Positions 9,577 through 38,294 of a stretch of DNA of 64,000 nt are shown here, one piece after another (the first letter of the stretch is position 1; each line of letters opens with the position of its first letter). The DNA is taken from assembly GCA_000004985.1 (NCBI GenBank), contig GG738879.1; one strand, 5' to 3'. The notes beneath the pieces are model-generated. The model was not told where the DNA came from, made no database searches, and was given only the letters and a program-made list of their open reading frames with translations. The DNA is from Naegleria gruberi. Taxonomy: Eukaryota. A program made the position numbers and the translations under genes.

Positions 9577-10632
9577 ATGTTGAGCACCAACACTGCGTCA
9601 TCGAGCACAGACAACCTTTTCCAATACATTAAAAAGTTGGTGCTTTCCAATAATTTGAAAGAGCTTCAACAAGTTGATCTTTCACAAATAAGCAACGATG
9701 AAATGAATGAATTGATTGAACTTGCTATTGAAAATGAATTTTGGGAGATTGTTTGCTTCTTGCGACAATATTTCTTCAATGATAATGAATTTGATAATCT
9801 AGACACCAATTATGAAACTGACAAACATAATCAAAAAGGTGTTAAGGATAAATATGTACAAGCCAAAGATACCAAGCATGGAAAGATTGTTGGAAAATAC
9901 TGCTTGACCAGTGGGAATAGTGAATACTTTATCAACTTGAAGGTTGCCCCCTCTCCATATACAATCCCAATCATTGATATTGATTGTAACGAATTGGGAG
10001 AAACTCAATTTGGAGTTAATATTGAGAAGTTAGATCAAAACAACCATGTGGAACAACTATCCTTCTCAAAATTTGATTTGGTTTTTCCCAAATCTGAACA
10101 TTCCCTCCAAACACTTTTAAATAACAAAGCTTTACCATGTAAAGCAGCGTTAAAGTGGATTTTACAACTAATCCAAGGAGTTCAATTCTTACACAAGCAA
10201 GGATTTGTTCACAGAAATATCAAACCATTCCATGTGCATGTTTATAAGGACCCAGTCACAGGAGATAAAAGTGTGAAATTGGGAGCAACTTGGGGAGCAT
10301 GTCCTATTGGTTATAAAGGAGAAGTTTATGGTTCAAGTGAAATACAAGCTCCAGAGATTAGCCAGCACGATGATGAAGAAGATTTCGAATACTGGCCAAG
10401 TTTAGATATTTATTTACTTGGTTGCACCCTTGCTGAATTAATGAATATTGTCATACTTACAGAACATGAATTGGAGCTTGTTAATGCTTTCATTAACAGA
10501 ATGAAACATGAAAATCCTATGGAGAGACCTGATATTGATGAATGCTATGAATTTTTCCATGATTTATTTCAATCCATGTTGTTCCCATTTTCAAACAAAT
10601 TTTCAGATTGTGTATTCAAATCATCTCAATAA
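9577..10632 (+). CDS. Protein-kinase-like domain protein, probably a pseudokinase.
   Basis: Catalytic-loop-like HRNIKP (N replaces the catalytic D). There is no DFG (VKLGATWG instead). The APE motif (QAPEISQ) and a DIYLLGCTLAELM subdomain-IX-like helix are present. No Gly-rich loop. Confidence 0.5.
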   Translation: MLSTNTASSSTDNLFQYIKKLVLSNNLKELQQVDLSQISNDEMNELIELAIENEFWEIVCFLRQYFFNDNEFDNLDTNYETDKHNQKGVKDKYVQAKDTKHGKIVGKYCLTSGNSEYFINLKVAPSPYTIPIIDIDCNELGETQFGVNIEKLDQNNHVEQLSFSKFDLVFPKSEHSLQTLLNNKALPCKAALKWILQLIQGVQFLHKQGFVHRNIKPFHVHVYKDPVTGDKSVKLGATWGACPIGYKGEVYGSSEIQAPEISQHDDEEDFEYWPSLDIYLLGCTLAELMNIVILTEHELELVNAFINRMKHENPMERPDIDECYEFFHDLFQSMLFPFSNKFSDCVFKSSQ

Positions 10633-10640
10633 ATGTTCAT

Positions 10641-12161
10641 TCATTCATCATCATCTTCATTCTCTTCAGATTTAACTCGAGTCAAACGTTTGAGAGATTT
10701 CTTCAATTTTTGCAATTCTGTTGCCTCAACATACATTCCAATTGTAAATTCTTCCAATCTTCCAAAAGATTCATTCTTTCCCAAAGTAGTCAAGAAACTT
10801 TTGACTTTTCCTTGTAAGTACATAATGTACAAACTCTTCAAATTTGGAAAGTGAGTAGATTTTGGAAGTAATAGATTATCCTTGCTTTCAATTTGAAAAC
10901 CCAAGTGTAAATGTTCCAATTTTGTAAATTTGTCACTTGCACAAAATTCCTTAAATCCAATTTCTGAGTGATTAAATTCTTGGTAGTTAATTTTGAAAGA
11001 TTTCAAGTTTTCAAATTGGCTTTCTGCTAATAGTTTGAAAACTGAAGATTCTTCATCGATTCCCATATCAATTTTACATTCCAATTCAGTTAATCCTTTC
11101 CAGGAAGGATTAGAACAAACTTGTTTGAAACATTCATGTGAAATATCAATTAATACGAGAGATTTGATATTGGAAATACTTTCATTCTTCAATAGAGCAT
11201 CCAAACTTTGCATTGTACTACTAAATTTCAATCTAATACTTTCCAATTTTGGAAAATCAGATTTAACAAATTCACAAATAAGGCGATCAAAATCTTCCTC
11301 TTCTGGAACTTCCTCTTCCACATCCATGAAATATTCATTATTACAAATTTCAAGAGTTTTCAATTGTGGACATGAAACTTTTCTTTTGATAAATGGAATG
11401 CAGAGTGATGTTGGTCCATGCATGTTTAGTTTAAAAGTTTCCAATGTTGGAATTGACATAGTTTCGTATATTTGATCTGCTTTCAATGATTTTTTGGTTG
11501 AACTAACAGTTGCAATGTAAAGAGATTTGAGGTTTGTTAAGGATTTGAGTGGTGAGAGATCAGAACCTGAAAATGTAATTTGTAATTCTTCTAAATTAGG
11601 AAAATTGTTTACAATTTCTTGGCAAGATTTGATTGGTGAATGAAGAGTAAGAGATTTCAGAGTTGGGATTTCACAGCTGAATTCGAAAGATGCTTGTCGT
11701 CCTTCTATAACAAGTTTCTTCAATTCTGAAAACTTGGGAATCGTCAACTTTCCAGAAACTGGAAACGAAAGTTCAATTACTTTTGGACAATTTTCCATCA
11801 ATGTCTTTGCCTCCTTTGCATTGATTCCATTAATAATCTTAATAATTCTAAACTGTTCACAATTTCTATTCGAATTTAACCAACCATTAAATTTGTTTCG
11901 AATATCTTCATCTAATTCTTCACTTTCAAACTCCGATTCTTCAAATTCTTCTTCTTCACCTGGGGATGATAAAACTAAACTTCCCAATGTCAATGTGTGT
12001 AATTGTTCAACTCCAGAACGAAATTGCTTGCAAGTTGTCATTAATTCGAAAGGTTCGAAATTTGACAGGTAGGAAAAGATGTTTACCATGCAATCATCAC
12101 CAATTTGATGAAGATTAGTTTTGACAGCTTCAACTTTACGTTTCTTGGTTTGTGGAGCCAT
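10641..12161 (-). CDS. F-box / leucine-rich-repeat protein, 506 aa.
   Basis: N-terminal F-box-like MVNIFSYLSNFEPFELMTTCKQF. Then many LxxLxL repeats (LKSLTLHSP, LEELQITF, LKSLTNLKSLYI...) and an acidic tail. Confidence 0.55.
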   Translation of the reverse strand: MAPQTKKRKVEAVKTNLHQIGDDCMVNIFSYLSNFEPFELMTTCKQFRSGVEQLHTLTLGSLVLSSPGEEEEFEESEFESEELDEDIRNKFNGWLNSNRNCEQFRIIKIINGINAKEAKTLMENCPKVIELSFPVSGKLTIPKFSELKKLVIEGRQASFEFSCEIPTLKSLTLHSPIKSCQEIVNNFPNLEELQITFSGSDLSPLKSLTNLKSLYIATVSSTKKSLKADQIYETMSIPTLETFKLNMHGPTSLCIPFIKRKVSCPQLKTLEICNNEYFMDVEEEVPEEEDFDRLICEFVKSDFPKLESIRLKFSSTMQSLDALLKNESISNIKSLVLIDISHECFKQVCSNPSWKGLTELECKIDMGIDEESSVFKLLAESQFENLKSFKINYQEFNHSEIGFKEFCASDKFTKLEHLHLGFQIESKDNLLLPKSTHFPNLKSLYIMYLQGKVKSFLTTLGKNESFGRLEEFTIGMYVEATELQKLKKSLKRLTRVKSEENEDDDE

Positions 12162-12370
12162 GTGTTTAGGTTGTGGTGATTTTTTTTTATTCGAAACTAT
12201 ATCTTCAACCCAATTTCTTTGGATTTAGGTTGTACCTTACGTTTTAACTACATTTCCATTCTTGAATACTTCTCTCGAACTTCCCTAAACTCCACCAATG
12301 AAAAGAAATTATAAACGAAAATAGAAAAATTATTGTAAACAATTTAAAATAATAAAAAATTAAAAAAAAA

Positions 12371-13810
12371 ATGAATGCACAAGATGAGATCGAATCGATA
12401 CAGTTGCACGACGTTCACCTCTCTAATCGTCTCCATTTGAAATTAAAAATTCTTCCGAAATATGAAGATGTTTTACCTGATCAAATGTTGGACAATTTAT
12501 TTTCAAATCATGATGATCAATTCAAAGATGAAAAAGTCAAGAAAATTGTTAATTTAGGGGGAAAAGCTTGTTTTCTTTATTATTATGGTCAATTTGAAAA
12601 GATTGGAGTGATTTTTATTGGATATATGGATGGTTCTATTGAGATGGTTTCAATGCTTAAAACACAAGAGGAAAGAGAAGATGTACAATCTCAACAACCT
12701 AAGAGATTTTCTTTTGTAGATAAATCAAGGAAGAGACAGCGTTGTCATCAAGCACAAATTACTGGAATTTTGTGTTTTTCTGTAGTGAGTGGAATGTCAC
12801 TATTAATGACATCATGTGCAGATGGATTTGTAAAGTTTTGGTTTCTTGATACTGATAAGGTTGATGATGAGATACAACCATGTTTGAAATTATTTGACAT
12901 TGGACATGAATATAATTTGGAATCAAGTGTTGTATCTTTGAAATTTGTTTACAATGAGGTTTATTATTCAAGTTGTGCAACGAAGGAAGATTTTTCTCTT
13001 TGGAGAGTCTTTCATGTAGTAGCTGTTTGTAGGAATGGAAATATTTATAGATGGGATCCAGCATTGATTCCTAAAGTTATCATGACAGAAGTTTCTCGAT
13101 ATGAGGTGCAAAATATATTCACACTCTTAACAGAGGAATATGTTGAATCACCAGAATTAATTAGTGAAATTAAGGGCGGTAATGTGGAGGTTGTTTGTGC
13201 TACCTTATCTCAGAAAATTACAACAACTGCGCAAGCATATATTGTTTGTGGTCTGTCAAACGGGATGATAGTATCTGTATCATTGTCATTTAAAGATCCA
13301 GATGAGGAGAGTAAAACTATTGAGGAGGATTACAGATTGACTAATATATCATTCATTTCTGACACTTTTTTACAAAGCAATCCACCAACAAAAATAGTTG
13401 AAATCTATCCATTCTCTCCTAACAACGGCTTTCATATTCTCTCCCGTAACAAGGTCTTTAATTTTAATCCAAAATCTAAGGGTATTTTTCTATATTTTAG
13501 AGAAGACAATTCAGATTTAATTACAATTTGTGAATATTTATACTTTACAAATGGAAGAGAGCTTGGAGAGAATGTCACCATCCCAGTTGACTATGTTTCA
13601 CAACAATTTACTGTTAGAGATTTGTGTTGGATTGCCAGAGGTAGTTTAATGTGTGTGAGCAGTGAAGAAGGTAATTTACTACTCTACCATAAGGAGCAAG
13701 AAAATTGGTACGAGCTGGTTTGTTTAGAACATACTCTTCTGAAATATACCTCATTTTCAATAATCAATCATTGTGCTCTGAGTGATGTGTTTATTATTGC
13801 ACAGAATTGA
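12371..13810 (+). CDS. WD40-repeat protein, 479 aa.
   Basis: ATG after an A9 run. WD-like blades are present (LLMTSCADGFVKFWFLD, VAVCRNGNIYRWDP, GYMDGSIEMV). Confidence 0.5.
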   Translation: MNAQDEIESIQLHDVHLSNRLHLKLKILPKYEDVLPDQMLDNLFSNHDDQFKDEKVKKIVNLGGKACFLYYYGQFEKIGVIFIGYMDGSIEMVSMLKTQEEREDVQSQQPKRFSFVDKSRKRQRCHQAQITGILCFSVVSGMSLLMTSCADGFVKFWFLDTDKVDDEIQPCLKLFDIGHEYNLESSVVSLKFVYNEVYYSSCATKEDFSLWRVFHVVAVCRNGNIYRWDPALIPKVIMTEVSRYEVQNIFTLLTEEYVESPELISEIKGGNVEVVCATLSQKITTTAQAYIVCGLSNGMIVSVSLSFKDPDEESKTIEEDYRLTNISFISDTFLQSNPPTKIVEIYPFSPNNGFHILSRNKVFNFNPKSKGIFLYFREDNSDLITICEYLYFTNGRELGENVTIPVDYVSQQFTVRDLCWIARGSLMCVSSEEGNLLLYHKEQENWYELVCLEHTLLKYTSFSIINHCALSDVFIIAQN

Positions 13811-24752: not shown

Positions 24753-27700
24753 TTAATGACTAATCTTATTTATTGGTTTTACAACCCAAATCCATTTACA
24801 TACAATAGAGAAAAAACAATGACCATCAACCACGTTGAATGATGTGATGATTGATGAATCACCCAATCTTTGACTCTCGAGAACTTTTGGTGAAGTTGAA
24901 CATTCACTTCCTGACCATCCACCCACACAAGCACAGTTATTTGGTGAGAAACAACTGCCGTGTCCAGAACAAACAGATACACTTGTGGAGATAGTTCCAT
25001 AACAATCAAATTGGTTACACTCTTTTCCATAGTAGTTATTTGCACATAAACAATTATTTGGTGATAAACAACTGCCGTGTCCAGAACAAACTGATGTGTT
25101 TGTGGAGATTGTTCCATAACAATCAAATTGGCTACAGTCATTTCCGTAGTGATTATTTACACATGAACAATTATTTGGTGAGAGACAGCTACCATTCAAA
25201 CTTCCACCACATGCATTATTGTCAATCAATCCAAAACAAATTGGTGTTCCACATTCTTTACCCGTGTATTCATTTGAGCAGGTGCAATTGTTGAAAGAGG
25301 AACAATTGCCTTTGAATGGACCATTACAGGCATCACTTCCATTCAATCCAAAGCAAATAGGCTTCTCACATTCAATTCCAAACCATCCACTTGTGCATGA
25401 ACAGGTATTTACATCACTACATAATCCATTTCCAGAACAGGCAGCAGTTGAGGTTTTGTTGAAACAAAATGGAAGACAAGTTTGGAAATCATCTTGCATT
25501 TCATAACCATCTGGACATCCAATCTTTCTTACAACTCTTCCATTTCCATTACTCATATGAATTACACCAATGGCATTTGTCAAAGGTGAAACTGAAATTC
25601 CAACAATATCACCAAATGTTGCATTACTCAATAATCCATCTTCCATTGAGGTCGATCCAGATTTTCCAGTCACTAACTTTAACACATTTTCCTTCTCATC
25701 AAATCTATAAATTTCATTGTCTCTCACCAAAATAATGGTTCCAAACTTGGTACATTGTATAGTATAACTTTCAATGGATAAACCATCCAATTGTTTTCTC
25801 AACATTCCATCTGGTGTTAACTTGAAAAAGTATGAATTAATAAGCAAGTAAACATTATCATCATTTGGACATGTGGTGAAATCATTAAATTCCATAAGTG
25901 GAAAGTCAGTTGCTTTGGTAATATTTGGATAAACATAATAAGGATTGTACAAGCCATTGCCAACTATTGTTGAAACTATTCCATTAGCATCAATCTTTCT
26001 CACTCTGCTATATTCATAATCATAAATCATCATTTCTCCGCTATTATAATTCACATTAACACCATATGGAGTAAATTGAGTTTTAGTATAGTGAACATTT
26101 TCCACCAGTTGACCAATAATAGTGGAAACAGTTCTTACATCCATATCCACAATTCTCACTCTTTTACCATCGAGGAAGTATAAATTTCCATCAATGGATG
26201 AAATTCTTGCTGCTGCAACTGTAGCAAGGGTGTTTTCTTCAGAAAGTTCTTTGTTATCCCCACTTACAACAGAACTTCTGGTTGTCTTTCTTTCAACTGA
26301 ATTACCTGTTAATGATATCTCTATTAATTCATTATCGTAAACTGTGAAAATCATGCCATTGTAGTAACTCAAATAGTATGGATAGCCTATTGAGGCAGTT
26401 GAGAGATTACCATTTTGGTAATTGGTGTTTTGGTATTGACCAGCCACAGTAGAAACGACTCCATTAGAAATCTTTCGAATAACACAATTGAAAGTATCTG
26501 AAACATATAGATCTCCATTGGTAGTATCTATATCAAGACCATTGGGAAAGTAAAAACGTGCAGTCTGAATTGGACCATCTTGATATCCACTTATCGTTCC
26601 TCCAGAAAAGGTTGAAACTATTTGAGATGTGAAATTGTAAACTCTGATTCTATGATTATAAGCATCAACAAAATATAGTTGACCATCAAGTGCATTAAAT
26701 GTCAAACCTAGAGGGTAATTTAATTGAACATCCGTGCCAATACCACTTTCATAGTTATTGGAAGTTGAAGAACCTGTTCCAATAATTCTGGTTGATTTTT
26801 CTAAAGAATCAACTCTATAGATAGAGGTTCTATCTGAGAAGTAAACATTAGAATTTGAATCTATTTCAATTGACTGTGGATTTCCATTGTATAGACTATT
26901 ACCTGAACTGTCAGCTGTTATGTGAATAGTTGAAATTATTCCATTTTGTGAAATCTTTCTAATTCTGTCCAAACTTAACAAGTAAATTTCACTTGTTTTC
27001 TTATCAAATTTGATGTCAATATAGTTTGATGAGGTAATTGCTTGCTCAAACGGGACATTATCAACTCCAAAGTAATCTGGAGCAAATAAAAGTCTTGTTC
27101 CATTGGTTAAATACTTGTACATTACTCTATCACCAATGATATAGATATTGTTCTGATTATCAGCATATTCTATTTGATACTTGTTACTTCCAGAAAGACC
27201 TGTGTTAAACAGGAAAGTTGTCAATCCATCTTTAAATTTGACAACTTGTTGGTAACTTGAAACCACAAATGAATCCTCATTCAATGAATAAGCCAGGCTG
27301 TTTCCTTTGACAAATGATTGTCCATAGGTTGTTCCTGAAATAGTGTATGGATCTGGTGAACCTGCTATAATTGTTGTCCATGCTTGTTGATTTTGTAGAT
27401 CTACCTTTCTAATAACTCGATTATCAAGATCGGCAATCAATAATTGATCCAATTGTGGTAGATATTGAATTTGGTAGGGTCTTACATACACATCCTTTCC
27501 ATTTTGTGGAAGATATGTTCTTTCATATGAATTGATATCGTTTCCCAAAAGTGTTGAAACCTGATTAGAATTCATATTCAACACTCTGACACGTTGATTA
27601 TTCAGATCTGAAATGAACAACTCTTGTGTCGAGTCTTTGAATGAAAGAGAGGGAATATAGTAAAACAGAGCTTGAGTTGCATTTCCATCTCTATATCCAT

Positions 27701-28442
27701 TATTATAATTATTGCCATCTCCTGCAATTACACTCATCACTCCATTACTCAACAATTTAACAATATTATTATAGGCTGACAAGTAAATATCACCATTTGA
27801 TGGATTAATAACCAATCCATTCATATTTTGATAGTAAGCAATGGTTGAAACAGTCGAGTTGACTTGTGAAATTAATCTCACTTTTTCTCCATCAGCAAGA
27901 TAAATGTCCTTGTTGGGACCGTGGACAAATAATTGTCTTGGCCCAACGAAAGTTGAACTATTCAAACTACGATCATCATATCCACTAGTTCGGGGAATAC
28001 CAGCAATATCAAAAATCTTTCCATTCACATCAATTTTTCTAACCAAATAATTATTCGAATCTGTGAAATATAAATCACCATTACTATCATCAAGAAAGAG
28101 AGAAAAAGGAGAGTCAATCTTTGCTTTCAAAGCATCTCCATTATGATCAGTGTTATAACCTGTATTACCATAAATACCTGCTATAGTCTGAAGAGTTCCA
28201 TCTTTTCTAACCTTTCGAATAACTTCATTGGTACAAAAGTAAAATTCAGAACCATCCCTTGATGAGGCAACACATGAAACACTTCCAATATAATTACCCA
28301 AAACAGAGGTAAAATCATTATTTGTATTGGTACTATTAGTGAGAGTGGTCACTGTAGGAAGTATTGGATTCAATGCATGTGTCAGTTGACAAAATAATCC
28401 AATAACCAAAAATAAAAGAAATTGAACGGTAGATTGGTTCAT
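24753..28442 (-). CDS. Large secreted or surface protein with NHL-type beta-propeller repeats followed by tenascin-type EGF repeats, 1229 aa.
   Basis: Signal peptide. Many YxTDxxNxxIRKI-type NHL blades (YFTDSNNYLVRKID, NHRIRVYNF, CVIRKISNG). The C-terminal CxGxGxCxxxNxCxCxxGWxGxxC repeats occur six times or more. A possible 44-nt terminal intron followed by a hydrophobic exon is unresolved. Confidence 0.65.
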   Translation of the reverse strand: MNQSTVQFLLFLVIGLFCQLTHALNPILPTVTTLTNSTNTNNDFTSVLGNYIGSVSCVASSRDGSEFYFCTNEVIRKVRKDGTLQTIAGIYGNTGYNTDHNGDALKAKIDSPFSLFLDDSNGDLYFTDSNNYLVRKIDVNGKIFDIAGIPRTSGYDDRSLNSSTFVGPRQLFVHGPNKDIYLADGEKVRLISQVNSTVSTIAYYQNMNGLVINPSNGDIYLSAYNNIVKLLSNGVMSVIAGDGNNYNNGYRDGNATQALFYYIPSLSFKDSTQELFISDLNNQRVRVLNMNSNQVSTLLGNDINSYERTYLPQNGKDVYVRPYQIQYLPQLDQLLIADLDNRVIRKVDLQNQQAWTTIIAGSPDPYTISGTTYGQSFVKGNSLAYSLNEDSFVVSSYQQVVKFKDGLTTFLFNTGLSGSNKYQIEYADNQNNIYIIGDRVMYKYLTNGTRLLFAPDYFGVDNVPFEQAITSSNYIDIKFDKKTSEIYLLSLDRIRKISQNGIISTIHITADSSGNSLYNGNPQSIEIDSNSNVYFSDRTSIYRVDSLEKSTRIIGTGSSTSNNYESGIGTDVQLNYPLGLTFNALDGQLYFVDAYNHRIRVYNFTSQIVSTFSGGTISGYQDGPIQTARFYFPNGLDIDTTNGDLYVSDTFNCVIRKISNGVVSTVAGQYQNTNYQNGNLSTASIGYPYYLSYYNGMIFTVYDNELIEISLTGNSVERKTTRSSVVSGDNKELSEENTLATVAAARISSIDGNLYFLDGKRVRIVDMDVRTVSTIIGQLVENVHYTKTQFTPYGVNVNYNSGEMMIYDYEYSRVRKIDANGIVSTIVGNGLYNPYYVYPNITKATDFPLMEFNDFTTCPNDDNVYLLINSYFFKLTPDGMLRKQLDGLSIESYTIQCTKFGTIILVRDNEIYRFDEKENVLKLVTGKSGSTSMEDGLLSNATFGDIVGISVSPLTNAIGVIHMSNGNGRVVRKIGCPDGYEMQDDFQTCLPFCFNKTSTAACSGNGLCSDVNTCSCTSGWFGIECEKPICFGLNGSDACNGPFKGNCSSFNNCTCSNEYTGKECGTPICFGLIDNNACGGSLNGSCLSPNNCSCVNNHYGNDCSQFDCYGTISTNTSVCSGHGSCLSPNNCLCANNYYGKECNQFDCYGTISTSVSVCSGHGSCFSPNNCACVGGWSGSECSTSPKVLESQRLGDSSIITSFNVVDGHCFFSIVCKWIWVVKPINKISH

Positions 28443-30711: not shown

Positions 30712-31272
30712 TCACATATAAATACTTACGGCAGTATGTTTAACACATTGAAAATGGATTTTTGAAGGTTGATTTTCATCAGAATCTCTCAATAACGATC
30801 CACATTCAGCCCAATAGGATGCCCTAATTTCAGAACATGATCTATCATCCAATTTTCTCAAATTAAAATTCCTAATAGAACACAATGGAGCGTCATCAAT
30901 GGAATGTATCAATTCATGTCTTAACACTTCATTTAATTCACTCTCATTCAACACATGATTTTTGCACACAATAATTCTTCTCTCTTCCTTTCCATCATTC
31001 AAGTAGCGCCTTTGATAATATGCCCTCGCATGATTATCGCACTCTATTACATTCAATTTCACATCTTGTTTACATTCGGAAAGGAGAGTTTCATACAAGA
31101 GTCTAACTTTTTCATCACAATTATTTCCTTTTAATTTTAAACAATTATCAAAATACTTTTGAATCCAATCATGATCATCTTTTATATTATTATCATTGTT
31201 TTGATTCTTCCCTTCTTCTGAATTTTCTTGATCCGAGCCGAGAAATGAAAAACTCTCTTCATGTTGTTGCAT
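30712..31272 (-). CDS. ATP23: Mitochondrial inner-membrane protease ATP23 homolog (peptidase M76).
   Basis: HExxH zinc motif in context LRHELIHSIDD. Conserved Cys pattern C...C...ECGSLLRDSDE...HFQCVKHTA. A short extra 3' exon between 30585 and 30700 cannot be excluded. Confidence 0.6.
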   Translation of the reverse strand: MQQHEESFSFLGSDQENSEEGKNQNNDNNIKDDHDWIQKYFDNCLKLKGNNCDEKVRLLYETLLSECKQDVKLNVIECDNHARAYYQRRYLNDGKEERRIIVCKNHVLNESELNEVLRHELIHSIDDAPLCSIRNFNLRKLDDRSCSEIRASYWAECGSLLRDSDENQPSKIHFQCVKHTAVSIYM

Positions 31273-31339: not shown

Positions 31340-32215
31340 TCATTCATCTGATTCATCTGTTTTCAAGTTTCCTTTTCGTTCTTTCATACGTTGCTTCTTT
31401 CTTTCCTCTTCCATCTTTTGAATGATTGAAATGGATTGTTTCATTAGTTCTATATTCTTGTTGATTTTCTCTCGTTGTGATTTTTCTTGTTCTGTGTTGG
31501 ATAATAGAACGTTATTGATAATCTTGTCATGGGATTCCTTACTCCTTCTCAATTCGCATATTAACTGGACTGATTTACTTGTCATTGCCTTAACATAGTC
31601 TTTACCAAAATTGGGATCTATTGGTGGAGCTTCCCTTTTTTTCAATTTCCTTGGTCTTTTCAAATTTGCTTCATCGATATCAAATATTCCCTCCAGTAAA
31701 TCATCAACCTCCAAAATCTGAGCTTTCACTTGTGGTTGCATTTGTCCAAAACTTGCCTTTTCTAAAATCTTTTTCTGTGCATAATTAAAGAGATTTGTTT
31801 GAAAATCAGGATCCTTTTTAATTTCCTCTCTTCTATTCACAATTCTTCCATATTTTTCAATGGTTCTCATCTTGGATTCCATTTCTTTTTGATGTTTATG
31901 TTGATTTTCAAGTTTGAGTCTTCTCTTTGGTGATGAAGATCCATCTATTGTGCCTTGACTGAGAGTTGGAGAATGTCCTCCATCGTCAGTCATGGTTCCA
32001 TCTTTCGAATAATCAGCCATGGGTATTTGGAGAGCCATCTTTGGATCGAGTAGTTGGACTCTTTTGAGGTGTGCTGCTTCCAAATTGCTAGCATTGGCTT
32101 TTAGTAATTGTTTGGAGGTTTTAGGGTCTTTCGGATCATTTTCGAAAAGATTATGAGATTCTCTTGAGGGAGGTCGATATATTCTTGCTGACATTACGCC
32201 ATTTGTTCTAAGCAT
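31340..32215 (-). CDS. Hypothetical K/E-rich coiled-coil (nuclear-type) protein, 291 aa.
   Basis: Real ATG. Charged low-complexity sequence with no recognisable domain. Confidence 0.35.
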   Translation of the reverse strand: MLRTNGVMSARIYRPPSRESHNLFENDPKDPKTSKQLLKANASNLEAAHLKRVQLLDPKMALQIPMADYSKDGTMTDDGGHSPTLSQGTIDGSSSPKRRLKLENQHKHQKEMESKMRTIEKYGRIVNRREEIKKDPDFQTNLFNYAQKKILEKASFGQMQPQVKAQILEVDDLLEGIFDIDEANLKRPRKLKKREAPPIDPNFGKDYVKAMTSKSVQLICELRRSKESHDKIINNVLLSNTEQEKSQREKINKNIELMKQSISIIQKMEEERKKQRMKERKGNLKTDESDE

Positions 32216-32542
32216 TTTATTTTAAAATTGTTGATTTCCTCAACTGAACACTGTAGAGTTGTAATGACAGTTTGATGGAGATGGTGTTATTATCTCATCT
32301 TAAAAGATGTATTGGAAATTTCACCTCTATAGTTCATGACAATCTCATGCTTTCTTTGGTTTGTTGTTCTTACTATTTTCAATGACATTCATGACATATT
32401 GAAAGACTGAGGGAACGTTTATGTTGGATTTTATGTTCATTTCTTGTTACGATGCAAGGTCAATAAGAGTTATTTTGCTTTGTATTATTGGGAAATTGTA
32501 TCTGAACTTGAAATAGTAAATTAAACAATTAAAAGTGATTTT

Positions 32543-35500
32543 TTAATCAACTATGGATTCTATTGGAGGTAAAACACTATCTTCTTCTTGTTTTACCTTT
32601 TTAATATTTGTATTGTCATTTGCATAAAGTCTTTCTCTCTTAATTCCACCACTTGTATCTGTCTTGTAAATTAATTGGCTTGGTGATTGAGGAATTGTTT
32701 GTTGAGGTGAGGAATGAGAAGGTGAAGGATTATCATAGAAATAGGATGGAGAAAGAGATGGAAATCCTGTCATTGGGGATACTAACATATGAGGTGGTGA
32801 AGGACTTGTTGGATTGGTATGATAGGAAGGACTTCTACGGTCAATTCTAGGAGAAGGAGAATTTGAGAAACTATATAATGAAGGACTTGAAGATGACATA
32901 AAATTTGGAGAGGATGACATGAGTGAGGAAGATCTCTTTGGATCACTTTCACCTAAAGTAGTATTTGTAGAGGTTGGTTTTGAATAGGATGGAGGTTTTG
33001 AAACATGTTGTAAATAATCACTAGGTTGAAATAGAGAAGTAAACTTTTTAGGGGTAGTGGTGGTATTTGAAATGTTGGAATTGGAGCCAATGCTATTCAT
33101 TGTTGTTGTTGATGATTGAATTGAAGGCATTTGAGATTGTGGATAGGAAGGAACATTTGACTTGTTTGAAGAATATTGATTAGGTGATGAATAAGAGTAA
33201 GGTGGTGATAAATTTGGCGATCGGCCTCCAAGTGGAGATGAATGGTGATGAGCAGGTGGACTTAGACCAGTACCACTAGCAATACTACTTGTTAAAATTT
33301 CTTGACTTGCAGATCTGTGAAGTGAAGCCATATTGTGTAGTGATGATGATTGAGTTGATTTTGGAGGTGGGTTCATCAGAGTATCAGATGCACTTGGATA
33401 ACAATTTGAAAGAGATGAATTATTATTAGCAGTGAGCAGAGAACCATGATGAATATTAGTGTTCATATTGCTATTTCCAATATTTCCAATAAGGTTTTGT
33501 GGAATATTCATCAAGTTATTATTACTGGACATGCTTGGTGGCATGTTACTACCCATCATATTATTTGGAATAGTATTAGGAATATTATTCATCATGTTAG
33601 GAGGCATTCCAGATGACATGTTATTTTGCATATTTGTAATATTGTTTGGAATACCATTTGGCATACCATTCATACCGTTTGATATGTTACTTGACATATT
33701 ACTTGGCATACTATTCATATTGTTTGGCATGTTATTTGGAATAGTATTTGGCATACTGCTCATTATATAATTATTAGGATTTTGATTGTAATTCAACACC
33801 TTATGAGATGCACTTGTTAGAATGTTATCATTTACATTCACTGATGATGGAGGCATCATATTTGGTATGTTTGGTTTCAGTTTTGATGCTGATTGAACAC
33901 TATTACTTGACGATACTCTAGACATTGGTTGTTTAGTTTCTTGATAAGAACTGACATTAGTGCTGGTATTGCCTGTACTTGATTGAATATTTTGGGGTGT
34001 TGTTGGCTTTGATTCTTGATTGAGGTTAATAACTGTCGATGAAGATTTGCTTTGCTTTGCTTTCTTTTCCGTTGTTTGTGATGCAACAATTGCACCATCT
34101 GATTCACTCAGTAAAGGATGGTTATGCGTTCCAAGACAAAGTAATAATCTTCTGTTATCAGCCTTATCAAGTGGTACATAGAAATGTAACTTGAAAGGAC
34201 ACTTTCCACTCTTTGTCAATGAATTATTGTTATGTTTCTGACAAGTGTGAAATCTCAATCTACATGGTCTAACAATACACGATTCACTGTCATCATCCTT
34301 GTGAGGACAATAATAAACACCCTGACATGTTCTTTCATAATGCATTACTTTACAATTCAAATAACTACAATGAACTTTCTTTTGAGTGGATGGAGTGCCA
34401 AATGAATAAGCAATCTTATCATAAAAACTATTCTTATCTGTCCAATTCTCAACATTGTAAATGTATAAAATTCCATGTTTTGGATATTCTACAGGTTCGT
34501 TTGGTGTTACACTTGTATCTGCTCGAATATTTCTAGTAATTTTAATTCCACCTTTTTGCCCTGCTTCTTGAGAAGCATCTCCTCCGGTTTCCTCTTCATT
34601 TGGCTGAGAATCCACTGCAGTTGCAGTTGGTTGTTGTTGGCTATTAGTAGGACTGGTTTCAGGTTTTACAAGTGTTGGTTGAACTATGGTTGTTTGTTGT
34701 ATTGTCCATTTTGGTTGGGTATTATTTTGGGCTTTTACCATTGTGGGCGTTGTAAACGAAATGGGTGTTGCTGAAGTGGAATTTTGCACTAGGACTCTGG
34801 AACCAACACTTGGATTGGATGATTGTTGCATGGCAGTTGTAGTTGAAGGTAGAGGAGTAGAATTTGGTGCATGTTTCATAGCATTGCCATTGTCATTATT
34901 GGAAAGTCGAAAGAAACTATTCACAGAGAATATATTATCTCCATCAACAATACGAGTTGGTGTTGGAGTGGAAGAATTTTGTAATTGGTGTTGAAGTGGT
35001 GTTTGATTCTGTTGAATGATCAATGCATCAGACGAAACTAAATTATTAGATGAATTATTTTGCACGTGATGATGAGATGTATCAATGGATTGATTACCCA
35101 TCATGACTTGGTAATTACTACCATTAAGATTATTCATATTATTATTGTTGCTATTGGTATTATTAAAATTGGAAGAAAGTTGATTATAGGATTGATTAGA
35201 TGACATTGGATAATTATTGTTCATCATGTTAGTATTGATTTGTTGCTGCATTAAACTATTGAACATGTTTTGTTGTTGATTATTATATAAACCCTGATGA
35301 TGATTATTCGAATTCCCTGTATTAAACCCAACAGAGTTATTGCCAAGTTGTTGCTGTTGTTGTGGAATATGATAACCTGACCCTCCGTGTTGTTGTTGTG
35401 GTTGAGCAACAGTTCTAAACTGTTGAGGAGGTGGTTGATGATGTTGTTGTACTACATTCCCATTACTGTTGCTAAATGTGTGTTGTTGCTGAAAATTCAT

Positions 35501-35779
35501 TGGCCATGAACTTGACACGACTTGCTGCTGATGATGGTGTAGGGAGGAAGGAGTTGTTGGACGTGATGATGTTGTTGCATAGAGATTATTAGAGGTAACA
35601 GAATTGTTATTGGTAGTGGAGACTGTCATCATCATGTTGGTATTATTATTATTATGGACTCCTACTGCAGTAATTTGATTAGTAATTGGTAAATTAGAGG
35701 ATTGTGGTGATGGTGAATTTGTTATTATTTGTTGTTGATGTTGATAGAGATTATGACCAGTATGTTGCTGGTTCTGCAT
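32543..35779 (-). CDS. N/Q-rich putative transcription factor with a central WRKY-like (WRKY/GCM1-superfamily) zinc-finger DNA-binding domain. About 1078 aa.
   Basis: Long poly-N/poly-Q and S/T/P tracts. A central Cys/His module ...KKVHCSYLNCKVMHYERTCQGVYYCPHKDDDSESCIVRPCRLRFHTCQKH...SGKCPFKLHFYVPLDKADNRRLLLCLGTHNHPL, where the C-terminal half follows the WRKY C..K..V.R..D...(L)..(L/Y).G.HNH pattern. Confidence 0.5.
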   Translation of the reverse strand: MQNQQHTGHNLYQHQQQIITNSPSPQSSNLPITNQITAVGVHNNNNTNMMMTVSTTNNNSVTSNNLYATTSSRPTTPSSLHHHQQQVVSSSWPMNFQQQHTFSNSNGNVVQQHHQPPPQQFRTVAQPQQQHGGSGYHIPQQQQQLGNNSVGFNTGNSNNHHQGLYNNQQQNMFNSLMQQQINTNMMNNNYPMSSNQSYNQLSSNFNNTNSNNNNMNNLNGSNYQVMMGNQSIDTSHHHVQNNSSNNLVSSDALIIQQNQTPLQHQLQNSSTPTPTRIVDGDNIFSVNSFFRLSNNDNGNAMKHAPNSTPLPSTTTAMQQSSNPSVGSRVLVQNSTSATPISFTTPTMVKAQNNTQPKWTIQQTTIVQPTLVKPETSPTNSQQQPTATAVDSQPNEEETGGDASQEAGQKGGIKITRNIRADTSVTPNEPVEYPKHGILYIYNVENWTDKNSFYDKIAYSFGTPSTQKKVHCSYLNCKVMHYERTCQGVYYCPHKDDDSESCIVRPCRLRFHTCQKHNNNSLTKSGKCPFKLHFYVPLDKADNRRLLLCLGTHNHPLLSESDGAIVASQTTEKKAKQSKSSSTVINLNQESKPTTPQNIQSSTGNTSTNVSSYQETKQPMSRVSSSNSVQSASKLKPNIPNMMPPSSVNVNDNILTSASHKVLNYNQNPNNYIMSSMPNTIPNNMPNNMNSMPSNMSSNISNGMNGMPNGIPNNITNMQNNMSSGMPPNMMNNIPNTIPNNMMGSNMPPSMSSNNNLMNIPQNLIGNIGNSNMNTNIHHGSLLTANNNSSLSNCYPSASDTLMNPPPKSTQSSSLHNMASLHRSASQEILTSSIASGTGLSPPAHHHSSPLGGRSPNLSPPYSYSSPNQYSSNKSNVPSYPQSQMPSIQSSTTTMNSIGSNSNISNTTTTPKKFTSLFQPSDYLQHVSKPPSYSKPTSTNTTLGESDPKRSSSLMSSSPNFMSSSSPSLYSFSNSPSPRIDRRSPSYHTNPTSPSPPHMLVSPMTGFPSLSPSYFYDNPSPSHSSPQQTIPQSPSQLIYKTDTSGGIKRERLYANDNTNIKKVKQEEDSVLPPIESIVD

Positions 35780-37751
35780 ATTTATCAAGTAGAGGAGTGA
35801 AGGTATTATTGTTCTTGATCAACTATTAGTAGTCGTGATGGAGCAGTCGTCGCTTCCGTATTACAAATTAATTCTGATGTGGTGCCACAAGAGGGTATAA
35901 GCTTTGATATATTTCAATTAAAATTGGGTATTTGATGCATTGACTGAGTGCACTCAATTTTTGTATCTCTTATGTCTGTTGCTACTCAAATGTGTTTGTG
36001 TGTTCTTTATATTAAATTATTTGGTGCGTAATGATCTCCAACACAACACAAGAATGTGATGATATTATTTGGTGATGATAATGGTTGCTGTGACTTGTTG
36101 TGACTGCAACTCCAAATGGGAGAGGATGATGATGGTGCAGGAGGAATGAGAATCTTTACACAAAACACTTCAACTTAATCGTCCAATACTGATGGAATAA
36201 GAACGAAGAACTTGAACACTAGATGATGATGGTGCAAGACGCAGATATCTATGCTTTTCTTTTTCAAAAAGAGAATCTGACAGGAAAAGTCAACAGGAGG
36301 TCAAGAAGCTTGTGTCTCACCACTCTATGAAGTTACACCTGACTTTCAATATCTTCTAACAACTACAACTGCAAAGGAGAAGTGAGGAGTTGATTGTCTT
36401 GAGATTTTGTTTTCTGTTCAGGAATATTGTGAATGGGGTGTTATTGATGTGATGCTGTTGATGAATTACGTGTTGAACCTTTGTTGTTGGTGGAAGATGT
36501 GTAACGAACTACAGCAGGTGATGATAAATGTAAGTTGGTAATTGCTTGAGGTATGCGTGCGCATGGATCATGTGTAAGGTCTAAGAGGCATCGGTACAAA
36601 CTACCAAGCAGTTGTCTCTTAATTTTGTCCTTCTTGATACCTTGTTTGGAAAGGGTATTAGGAAATGCAGGATAAGTCCCTCAATGGACCGTGTGTTGGT
36701 GGCTGTTAAAAGCTCACACATATTGTTTACATGTTCCTTAATGTTTGGCAGATTTTGTGAGAAATAATGTTTTTAGGCATGCATAATTCTCAGTACTATT
36801 TTAGAAATGGTGACCCCAAATCTTGTATAAAATCGATTCTCCTTGTTTGTACATGGAACCTTAGACGCTATTTTGGCTTTATTCCAGCTGTATATACGTT
36901 CCAATAAAGAATGGAAAAATTACACTTGACTCACTAAAAAGTATATTAGAATTCCATTTGTGGTTGTTATTATTGAATTTAAAGAACAGCATATATGATT
37001 GGGTTGATTTTCCAATTTAATCCTTAATTTTCTGAAGTTTGAACTGTCTGTTGCATGTCATATAAAGTAGTGTCATTGCTTCAGATCCAAATATTGAACT
37101 ATTATTGTGAAGAATTTCTCACTTTGTGGATGTTCTTTCCTCAATAGTCGTCTTTATCCGTCTTCTTTTGACCAGGTTTATCCTTAGAGTTCAGTTTTCA
37201 TACTTCTTAAATAACCTAATTCCTTAACTTTTTGGATTGATTAATTTGCTCCAATTTATTGATGGTTCCTTGTGGTTTTAATACGATCTTCTGTATGTGG
37301 AATTTATAAGCATTTGCTAATCTCAAGAAAGGAGTGATGGAGGTATGTAGTTTTATTGCTTTATTGTTGCAAATTAATATCTGATCACAAATTTCTTGAT
37401 GTTCCTTATTATTATTTGGAACATCTTTTCATCTAATAAATTTCTTCTTTCTCTACAATCTTTTCCGATGATTTGACGAGATTATTTCCAGTACTCTTTG
37501 TTCATTCCTATTATTTAATTTAGAGAGAAAATGTTCTTTTCACAACTGTTTTTTTTGTTCTGTAAAATCTTCATGGTATCATGATCGGATGAAATTCTCT
37601 TTTTAATAAATTGATCCTCTTTGAGTTAATAATTGGAAAGGCCATCAGAGAAAATAAGAAGTAATTTCTGCTAGTATTTCTACTCCATTTGAAATACTAC
37701 AGCTCAAAGAAGAGAAAAGGCGCGAATTAAAAAATAATATTAAATAAAAAA

Positions 37752-38294
37752 ATGAGTCAACAACAAACTAGTGCTGAATCAACAACCCTCGTCGAAAAAG
37801 TAACCAAGTTCATCGTATCACCAGTATCTCTTGCTGTGATTTCTGTTGCTGGTGTTGCTGGAGCATATTTATTATATAAGAAATTTTCGCCAAAGAAAAA
37901 GACAAGTTCGATAACTGGTGATGATTATAGTGATACTTCTTCTGATAGCGATTCTGATAGTGATTCTGATGAAGAAGAAGTCGAAATCAAGGATTTCACT
38001 CTTGATGAATTACACACATTTGATGGTGTTATCAATCCAAAAGTTTATGTTAGTGTTTTAGGTAGTGTTTTTGATGTTACCGGAAGTGGATTTTATGGTC
38101 CTGGAGAAACCTACTCTCTTTATGCTGGACATGATGCTTCATTTGCCTTGGCAACTAATGACGTCACTGCCACCAACTTGGATAAATTGGATCTTTCTGA
38201 ATTGAAGGCAAACGAATTGGATCATTTACAATCCATGGTTGAACACTTTAGAATGAAGTATTTACATGTTGGTAACTTGCTGGAAATGCAATAA
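37752..38294 (+). CDS. MAPR/PGRMC/Dap1-like cytochrome b5-like heme/steroid-binding protein, paralog 2.
   Basis: Same architecture as 8007..8510: TM, SDSDSDSDSDEEE linker, then KVYVSVLGSVFDVTGSGFYGPGETYSLYAGHDASFALA. Confidence 0.75.
   Translation: MSQQQTSAESTTLVEKVTKFIVSPVSLAVISVAGVAGAYLLYKKFSPKKKTSSITGDDYSDTSSDSDSDSDSDEEEVEIKDFTLDELHTFDGVINPKVYVSVLGSVFDVTGSGFYGPGETYSLYAGHDASFALATNDVTATNLDKLDLSELKANELDHLQSMVEHFRMKYLHVGNLLEMQ

Follow-up and report, generated by a model that had tools for sequence, protein, structure and literature searches.

In a 64,000-nucleotide stretch of the Naegleria gruberi contig GG738879.1 (the window, always meant at its full length), a gene on the minus strand encodes a protein of 1,078 amino acids (aa). 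This protein probably acts as a transcription factor specific to its lineage, and it would be one of the rare relatives of GCM outside animals. We put the probability of the full reading, in which the gene encodes a nuclear, sequence-specific host transcription factor with a GCM-type domain of the WRKY-GCM1 superfamily, at roughly 0.7. The features on which this reading turns are the following.

32543..35779, minus strand: complete single-exon coding sequence, 1,078 aa plus a TAA stop, established from the list of open reading frames (ORFs), the identity to P0005, and an upstream in-frame stop.
34100..34552, minus strand: GCM-like (WRKY-GCM1 superfamily) domain of about 150 aa, aa 410 to 560, the sole strongly conserved and predicted folded part of the protein.
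34202..34324, minus strand: insert of 41 aa, aa 486 to 526, between the core cysteines C485 and C527, carrying the conserved C491, C501, C513, and H516.

The ORF spans 32543..35788; its ATG-start version (32543..35779) yields the 1,078-aa product and ends in TAA at 32543-32545, and an in-frame TGA lies 14 codons 5' of the ATG (35779). The translation is identical to XP_002675296.1/D2VL32_NAEGR (P0005 in our set), the product of N. gruberi NAEGRDRAFT_80403, which is annotated as "hypothetical protein" and over its whole length has no relevant Pfam match. Serine (16%), asparagine (13.9%), proline (8.9%), threonine (8.3%), and glutamine (8.2%) account for much of the protein, with N+Q at 22% and S+T+P at 33%, much as an earlier note on this DNA had described for a product of about 1,080 aa. 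That note had also pointed to a single Cys/His-rich module, and the count bears it out: 9 of the 10 cysteines fall within residues 471 to 548, and the strings it quoted (CSYLNCKV, YYCPHKD, CIVRPCRLRFHTCQKH, and CPFKLHFYVPLDKADNRRLLLCLGTHNHPL) are all found at aa 471 to 556.

The Cys/His module cannot be put down to chance; it forms the core of the conserved domain at aa 410 to 560. An initial homology search returned four short relatives with a common block of about 150 aa, and a broader profile added just two new sequences. When the profile of this block was searched exhaustively against 1.84 billion representative proteins, 34 proteins matched at E ≤ 1e-3, of which 15 also passed the stricter threshold of E ≤ 1e-30. 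The close members with a full domain are all from Heterolobosea, namely N. gruberi (the query), Naegleria fowleri, Willaertia magna, and Pharyngomonas kirbyi (two proteins). More distant members belong to Euglena gracilis, Daphnia magna, and the chytrid Phlyctochytrium arcticum (several proteins), and to the Glomeromycota genera Rhizophagus, Gigaspora, Cetraspora, and Scutellospora (several proteins); the others come from metagenome or read-archive assemblies. A Pfam domain was found in none of these proteins. The N. gruberi and N. fowleri proteins are aligned by BLASTP over the domain only (65% identity over 207 aa, 76% in the domain proper), and domain identity to N. fowleri and Willaertia is 75 to 76%.

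Among the weak matches, at least P0020 and P0030 are repeat proteins that match one short stretch repeatedly, and they were discarded as probably spurious. A 242-aa relative from a TARA ocean metagenome (P0186; 6001-6729 on locus L001) sits amid a row of short ORFs on the same strand that resemble exons of a larger eukaryotic gene, and on the longest contig it adjoins a kinase/DEAD-helicase gene.

Conservation of the candidate metal ligands was read from an 18-sequence alignment (A3) in which identities fall to 25 to 30%. The columns of C485, G487, C491, C501, C513, C527, and H554 are invariant, and at least 90% of the sequences share H516 and H552 (in A3 numbering, C81, C87, C97, C109, and C123 correspond to aa 485, 491, 501, 513, and 527, and H112, H148, and H150 to aa 516, 552, and 554). 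In one member, P0014, a cysteine replaces H516, giving C-x2-C. The pattern of conservation suggests that these eight cysteines and histidines are ligands for two zinc ions, of which C491, C501, C513, and H516 in the insert would make up the second site. The part of the module that the earlier note had called expanded and unusual is indeed present, and it can be explained as this putative second zinc site, conserved between the core cysteines, together with an N-terminal beta extension.

Structure prediction places these residues in a recognizable order. An AlphaFold2 model built from a 5-sequence alignment had a predicted local distance difference test (pLDDT) score of 79; with the 18-sequence alignment, which includes divergent members, the pLDDT rose to 89.2 with a predicted template-modeling (pTM) score of 0.81. 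C485 is predicted to end strand 2, C527 to open strand 3, and H552-x-H554 to follow strand 4. The WRKY-GCM1 fold is defined (PMC1702500) as an antiparallel sheet of four strands in which strand 2 ends with a Cys, strand 3 begins with one, and strand 4 ends with two His, and the predicted strand order matches this definition, so that the domain has the fold as far as prediction shows. In the predicted model, the two-subdomain architecture of the whole domain of about 150 aa is also superposable on the GCM structure 1odh. The superfamily of Babu et al. (2006) takes in GCM, WRKY, and Aft2, and NAC is discussed there as a structurally related fold (PMC1702500). Going by the model, we regard assignment of the domain to the WRKY-GCM1 fold, as a GCM-like member, as very likely. 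The superfamily assignment made in the earlier note was essentially right at the level of predicted fold, and the structural check that it proposed came out in its favor; the nearest relative, however, is GCM rather than WRKY.

The label "WRKY-like" does not fit. Classical WRKY domains (PF03106; PDB 1wj2 and 6j4e) carry the WRKYGQK motif, whereas the Naegleria strand at that place reads YSFGTPSTQK; they have a spacer of 4 to 7 residues between the core cysteines, whereas the Naegleria domain has a predicted zinc-binding insert of 41 residues there and, in addition, an N-terminal extension of about 60 residues. In profile-profile alignment with hhalign against five verified WRKY domains, the family scored 18.5, which lies inside the range of shuffled alignments (11.1 ± 2.6, maximum 19.5). 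Membership of the protein in the classical WRKY family, even as a divergent one, is effectively refuted by these differences together with the missing PF03106 match reported below. FLYWCH (PF04500) differs as well, in that the Naegleria domain is without the FLYWCH tryptophan, the sequence leading up to C485 reads E-R-T-C, and PF04500 gives no match.

The comparison with GCM gave a different result. Mouse and human GCM1 were checked against PDB 1odh as references, and 120 animal GCM proteins were reduced to a 41-sequence domain alignment. Against this alignment the family scored 31.6 in hhalign (P = 2.8e-4, probability 41%, 101 columns); a reversed-alignment control gave P = 0.43, and 150 column shuffles of the GCM alignment, which keep its Cys-rich composition, had a mean score of 13.6 (standard deviation 2.4, maximum 20.6). 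The accepted pair of GCM and WRKY scored 14.2 in the same test. Taken with the WRKY score above, these values show a measurable ranking in which the family stands nearer to GCM than either of the two stands to WRKY.

The likeness extends to the putative ligands, for which the exact residues of the second GCM zinc site were taken from the description in PMC1702500. In the alignment to mouse GCM1, C485 pairs with C76, G487 with G78, C491 with C82, C513 with C113, H516 with C116, C527 with C125, and H552 and H554 with H152 and H154, so that 7 of the 8 conserved Cys/His fall on conserved Cys/His of mouse GCM1. Both families have C-x5-C and C-x2-[C/H]; the next Cys follows at 10 residues in the Naegleria-type family versus 8 in GCM, and the HxH at 24 versus 26. 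GCM has a metal-binding module between its two core cysteines, the feature that separates GCM from WRKY (PMC1702500), and the insert of the Naegleria domain may correspond to it.

There are also clear differences from GCM (PF03615; PDB 1odh), to which identity is about 15%. The core cysteines are separated by 48 residues in GCM and by 41 in the Naegleria domain, and the inserted zinc site of GCM has four cysteines, whereas a C3H site is predicted in the Naegleria family (leaving aside the C-x2-C of P0014). In place of the WAMRNTNNHN strand and the RGHxGxPVT(H/N)FW loop of GCM, the Naegleria family has YSFGxPSTQK and KLHFYVPxD. GCM is a family of animals, whereas the Naegleria-type family occurs in Heterolobosea and Euglena, and the flanks of the Naegleria protein (the N/Q-rich regions and the LPPI tail) are unrelated to those of GCM proteins.

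Several results weigh against the GCM-type reading. The comparison with Pfam profiles that the earlier note had put forward as a check came back empty: WRKY (PF03106), GCM (PF03615), FLYWCH (PF04500), and FAR1 (PF03101) had no match in hmmscan with the threshold at E ≤ 10, whether the query was the full protein, its domain, or any one of the 18 aligned members of the family. Searches of PDB sequences with phmmer and hmmsearch returned nothing meaningful, the only matches, both at E > 1, being a nanobody and a VLDL-receptor repeat, and Foldseek found no significant match to the domain in the PDB, the best being NAC domains at E = 0.25, which is a real weakness. A Foldseek miss is not unusual for small metal-stabilized beta domains at 15% identity. 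The hhalign probability to GCM is just 27 to 41%, the alignment between profiles departs from the one between single sequences in the central part of the insert, and C501, the eighth candidate ligand, is without an agreed GCM counterpart. Our literature search found no paper that mentions the gene, nor any description of a GCM-like cellular factor from Naegleria. Given the missing profile matches, we place the domain in the WRKY-GCM1 superfamily as a GCM-like variant, outside the GCM and WRKY families themselves.

The best Pfam matches obtained, MNNL (E = 0.0043) and zf-SAP30 (E = 0.03), were taken as Cys-rich noise. A Candida Aft/Rbf1-type factor and Dictyostelium CudA, both early guesses prompted by an AT-rich genome and an N/Q-rich product, were dropped, the relatives being in Naegleria, Willaertia, and Pharyngomonas; AFT2 is just a weak structural match, and CudA was set aside without a sequence comparison.

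A different route to the same architecture has to be weighed here. FAR1, yeast Aft1/Aft2, and Candida Rbf1 (PDB 4lmg) resemble the Naegleria domain in having a basic insert between the core cysteines, and they are stand-alone transcription factors whose presumed source is the DNA-binding domains of MULE transposases (PMC1702500). The FAR1 type is defined by a basic insert of 20 to 70 residues at that place, by a helix N-terminal to strand 1, and by a match to the FAR1 profile. The Naegleria domain might accordingly be an insert-containing WRKY-GCM1 domain of the FAR1/Aft/Rbf1/MULE-transposase type that gained its zinc insert independently, in which case the likeness to GCM would be convergent and DNA binding would be retained. 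We consider this explanation unlikely.

Outside the domain, conservation is confined to short islands within long low-complexity regions, which can be listed as follows.

34565..35779, minus strand: N-terminal low-complexity region, aa 1 to 405, with 32% N+Q, 30% S+T+P, and no Cys.
34901..34939, minus strand: motif island DNIFSVNSFFR, about aa 281 to 293, inside the N-terminal low-complexity region.
32546..34099, minus strand: C-terminal low-complexity region, aa 561 to 1078 (518 aa), with 40% S+T+P, 18% N+Q, and M/P/N-rich imperfect repeats.
32984..33019, minus strand: conserved motif DYLQHVSKPPSY, aa 921 to 932, with a PPxY-type sequence, found by regular-expression search across relatives.
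32546..32641, minus strand: basic bipartite stretch KRER-x10-KKVK (aa 1047 to 1063), then LPPI (aa 1070 to 1073) and the protein end, found by motif search.

Residues 1 to 405, for which BLASTP gives no alignment with the N. fowleri orthologue, may form a disordered and possibly activating region, to judge by their composition. Within them, the pattern [LI]FSV occurs at aa 283 in N. gruberi and at aa 149 in N. fowleri (DDLFSVDRFFR), and a similar NLFSVKEFFR is found in an environmental fragment (P0018). The DYLQHVSKPPSY motif, DYLQH[VI]xxPPS[YF] in general form, is shared by both Naegleria species, Willaertia, and an environmental sequence (P0015); to judge by the PPxY consensus, its PPxY-type sequence may mediate interaction with WW domains. 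Of 16 family members that lie close to the heterolobosean proteins, 12 have LP[PS][IF], for the most part near the C terminus, and in most of them basic K/R clusters come before it. The KRER-x10-KKVK stretch is a candidate nuclear localization signal. The conserved islands are thus the FSV..FFR and DYLQH..PPS motifs and the basic stretch with LP[PS][IF].

Imperfect tandem repeats in the DNA at 33558-33757 (periods of 12, 21, and 45), corresponding to about aa 675 to 740, encode M/P/N-rich peptide repeats (…MPNTIPNNMPNNMNSMPSNM…). Over this minus-strand gene the plus strand has a strong positive GC skew (0.33 and 0.23 in the 2-kb windows of 32001-36000), which probably reflects the C-rich codons of the S/T/P/Q/N-rich product.

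From these elements we propose the following mechanism. C485, which ends strand 2, would bind one zinc ion together with C527, which opens strand 3, and the H552-x-H554 pair at the end of strand 4; a second ion would be bound by C491, C501, C513, and H516 within the 41-residue insert. By analogy with GCM and WRKY, an edge of the beta sheet that includes the conserved YSFGxPSTQK and VMHYERTCQG strands would enter the DNA major groove, and the basic insert could add contacts to the DNA backbone; GCM itself binds the octamer 5'-ATGCGGGT-3' as a monomer (PMC2172107). The domain is basic overall, with K+R at 13.9% and D+E at 9.3%. The N/Q- and S/T/P-rich flanks would serve as disordered activation or interaction regions, with the PPxY-type motif and the LPPI tail recruiting partners, the latter by docking, and the C-terminal basic stretch would provide nuclear import. 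In a protein of another kind, such as a scaffold or a condensate component, the Cys/His module would instead be a zinc-stabilized module that binds protein or RNA in place of DNA. We hold that account to be improbable beside a DNA-binding transcription factor.

That the gene is a host gene and not a mobile element is supported by its surroundings, which are listed here before the argument is taken further.

31340-32215, minus strand: ORF of 291 aa, rich in lysine and glutamate, without a Pfam match, a downstream neighbor whose homologue occupies the corresponding place close to the orthologue in N. fowleri.
30712-31272, minus strand: peptidase M76 (Atp23-like) gene, a downstream neighbor.
35780..37751, no strand: upstream region of about 2 kb with no ORF of at least 60 aa in the ORF list, between the factor gene and the divergent cytochrome-b5-like gene.
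37752-38294, divergently oriented: cytochrome-b5/MAPR-like gene, conserved beside the N. fowleri orthologue.

The N. fowleri orthologue is likewise a single uninterrupted ORF (FDP41_009931; VFQX01000074.1, L004), and its locus keeps two flanking genes in the order and orientation of the window, the homologue of the 291-aa ORF and the cytochrome-b5-like gene. Relative to these conserved flanks, the factor gene of N. fowleri (10001-12880 on VFQX01000074.1) is inverted compared with N. gruberi, and genes for Sec3, an Rpb7-like protein, and an exo/endo-phosphatase are interposed along with one more gene. The orthologues in N. fowleri, Willaertia, and Pharyngomonas, the single exon in both Naegleria species, the shared flanks, and the conserved motifs outside the domain together argue for host-gene status. 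The region at 35780..37751 presumably holds the promoter and 5' region; at about 2 kb, this ORF-free stretch is long for a gene-dense window.

A mobile origin deserves attention because of MuDRF, a branch of Mutator elements in Basidiomycota whose one protein has a GCM domain joined to a DDE transposase (Cantu et al. 2011, PMC3164196). A MuDRF element would further be marked by terminal inverted repeats and 9-bp target-site duplications. A full-length MuDRF element with its GCM domain has been reported in N. gruberi itself (PMC3164196), and our literature search found no other paper that mentions MuDRF. The gene studied here, annotated merely as encoding a hypothetical protein, could on these grounds be the decaying remnant of a MuDRF-type transposon that kept the DNA-binding domain and has no host function. 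However, the ORF is intact at 1,078 aa, the orthologues in N. fowleri, Willaertia, and Pharyngomonas look single copy, with the domain strongly conserved in the first two, and both the flanking genes in N. fowleri and the motifs outside the domain have been retained. No second copy of the domain was found within the 64-kb window. There is no transposase region in the protein, and nothing beyond the domain is conserved at length or matches Pfam, although no specific search for terminal repeats or target-site duplications was made. We judge the remnant explanation very improbable. As far as can be told from the published description of MuDRF, with which the comparison was made in place of a sequence, the two are alike in having a GCM-type domain outside animals, and they differ in that MuDRF proteins carry a DDE transposase, whereas the Naegleria protein has no such region and sits in a conserved gene neighborhood. 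A relationship between the Naegleria domain and the GCM domains that MuDRF transposons carry is plausible.

The fungal relatives differ from the heterolobosean ones in several respects. In the chytrid and Glomeromycota proteins P0021, P0023, and P0035/P0060, an additional Cys-rich insert of about 150 residues interrupts the domain, and beyond the HxH come a proline-rich stretch and a helical segment, both conserved (PPPP..[IL]P..[IL]...I). This segment also occurs in the Euglena and marine-metagenome members and is absent from the heterolobosean ones. P0021, a chytrid protein, continues for about 400 further residues without a Pfam match, and these C-terminal residues are possibly a very divergent Mutator-type transposase. 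The chytrid and Glomeromycota relatives are longer and multi-copy, and one of them, of 889 aa, has a long C-terminal region, features that would fit a transposase context. Pfam scans revealed no transposase domain in P0021 or in the other relatives scanned. From these sequence features it is plausible that they are members of the transposase type.

These observations bear on the origin of GCM. Babu et al. described the GCM1 family, whose members are master-regulator transcription factors, as exclusive to animals and proposed that GCM came about when a zinc ribbon entered a WRKY-GCM1 domain that already contained an insert and was associated with transposons (PMC1702500). A conserved heterolobosean host family with a Euglena relative and a domain that Pfam misses offers a point of comparison for the proposed scenario, and the same comparison serves the study of how transposases were recruited as transcription factors outside animals, plants, and fungi. 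We tentatively suggest, as a possibility that we rate somewhat below even odds, that the Heterolobosea/Euglena family and animal GCM are independent host recruitments of the two-zinc, GCM-type DNA-binding domain of one ancient lineage of MuDRF-like Mutator transposons. In that case, the Naegleria-type family would be the first non-animal family of cellular transcription factors with a GCM-type domain, and it would supply an outgroup for reconstructing the origin of the "animal-specific" GCM domain.

For Naegleria itself, the transcription factors that drive the switch from amoeba to flagellate have not been identified, and FOXJ1, RFX, and XAP5 are absent (PMC12183034). Lineage-specific DNA-binding families are therefore candidates for a role in this differentiation, and the present family is one such candidate, nothing more. 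Its sequences point to a domain that is probably GCM-like, two-zinc, and DNA binding, previously unmodeled, and found in a mainly heterolobosean family; the domain merits a profile model of its own, which would end the "hypothetical" annotation.

The window as a whole is AT-rich (about 33% GC) and gene dense, with eukaryotic genes. Among them, a gene at 24753-28442 on the minus strand encodes a protein of 1,229 aa with teneurin-type NHL and EGF repeats, a combination that is usually linked with animals.

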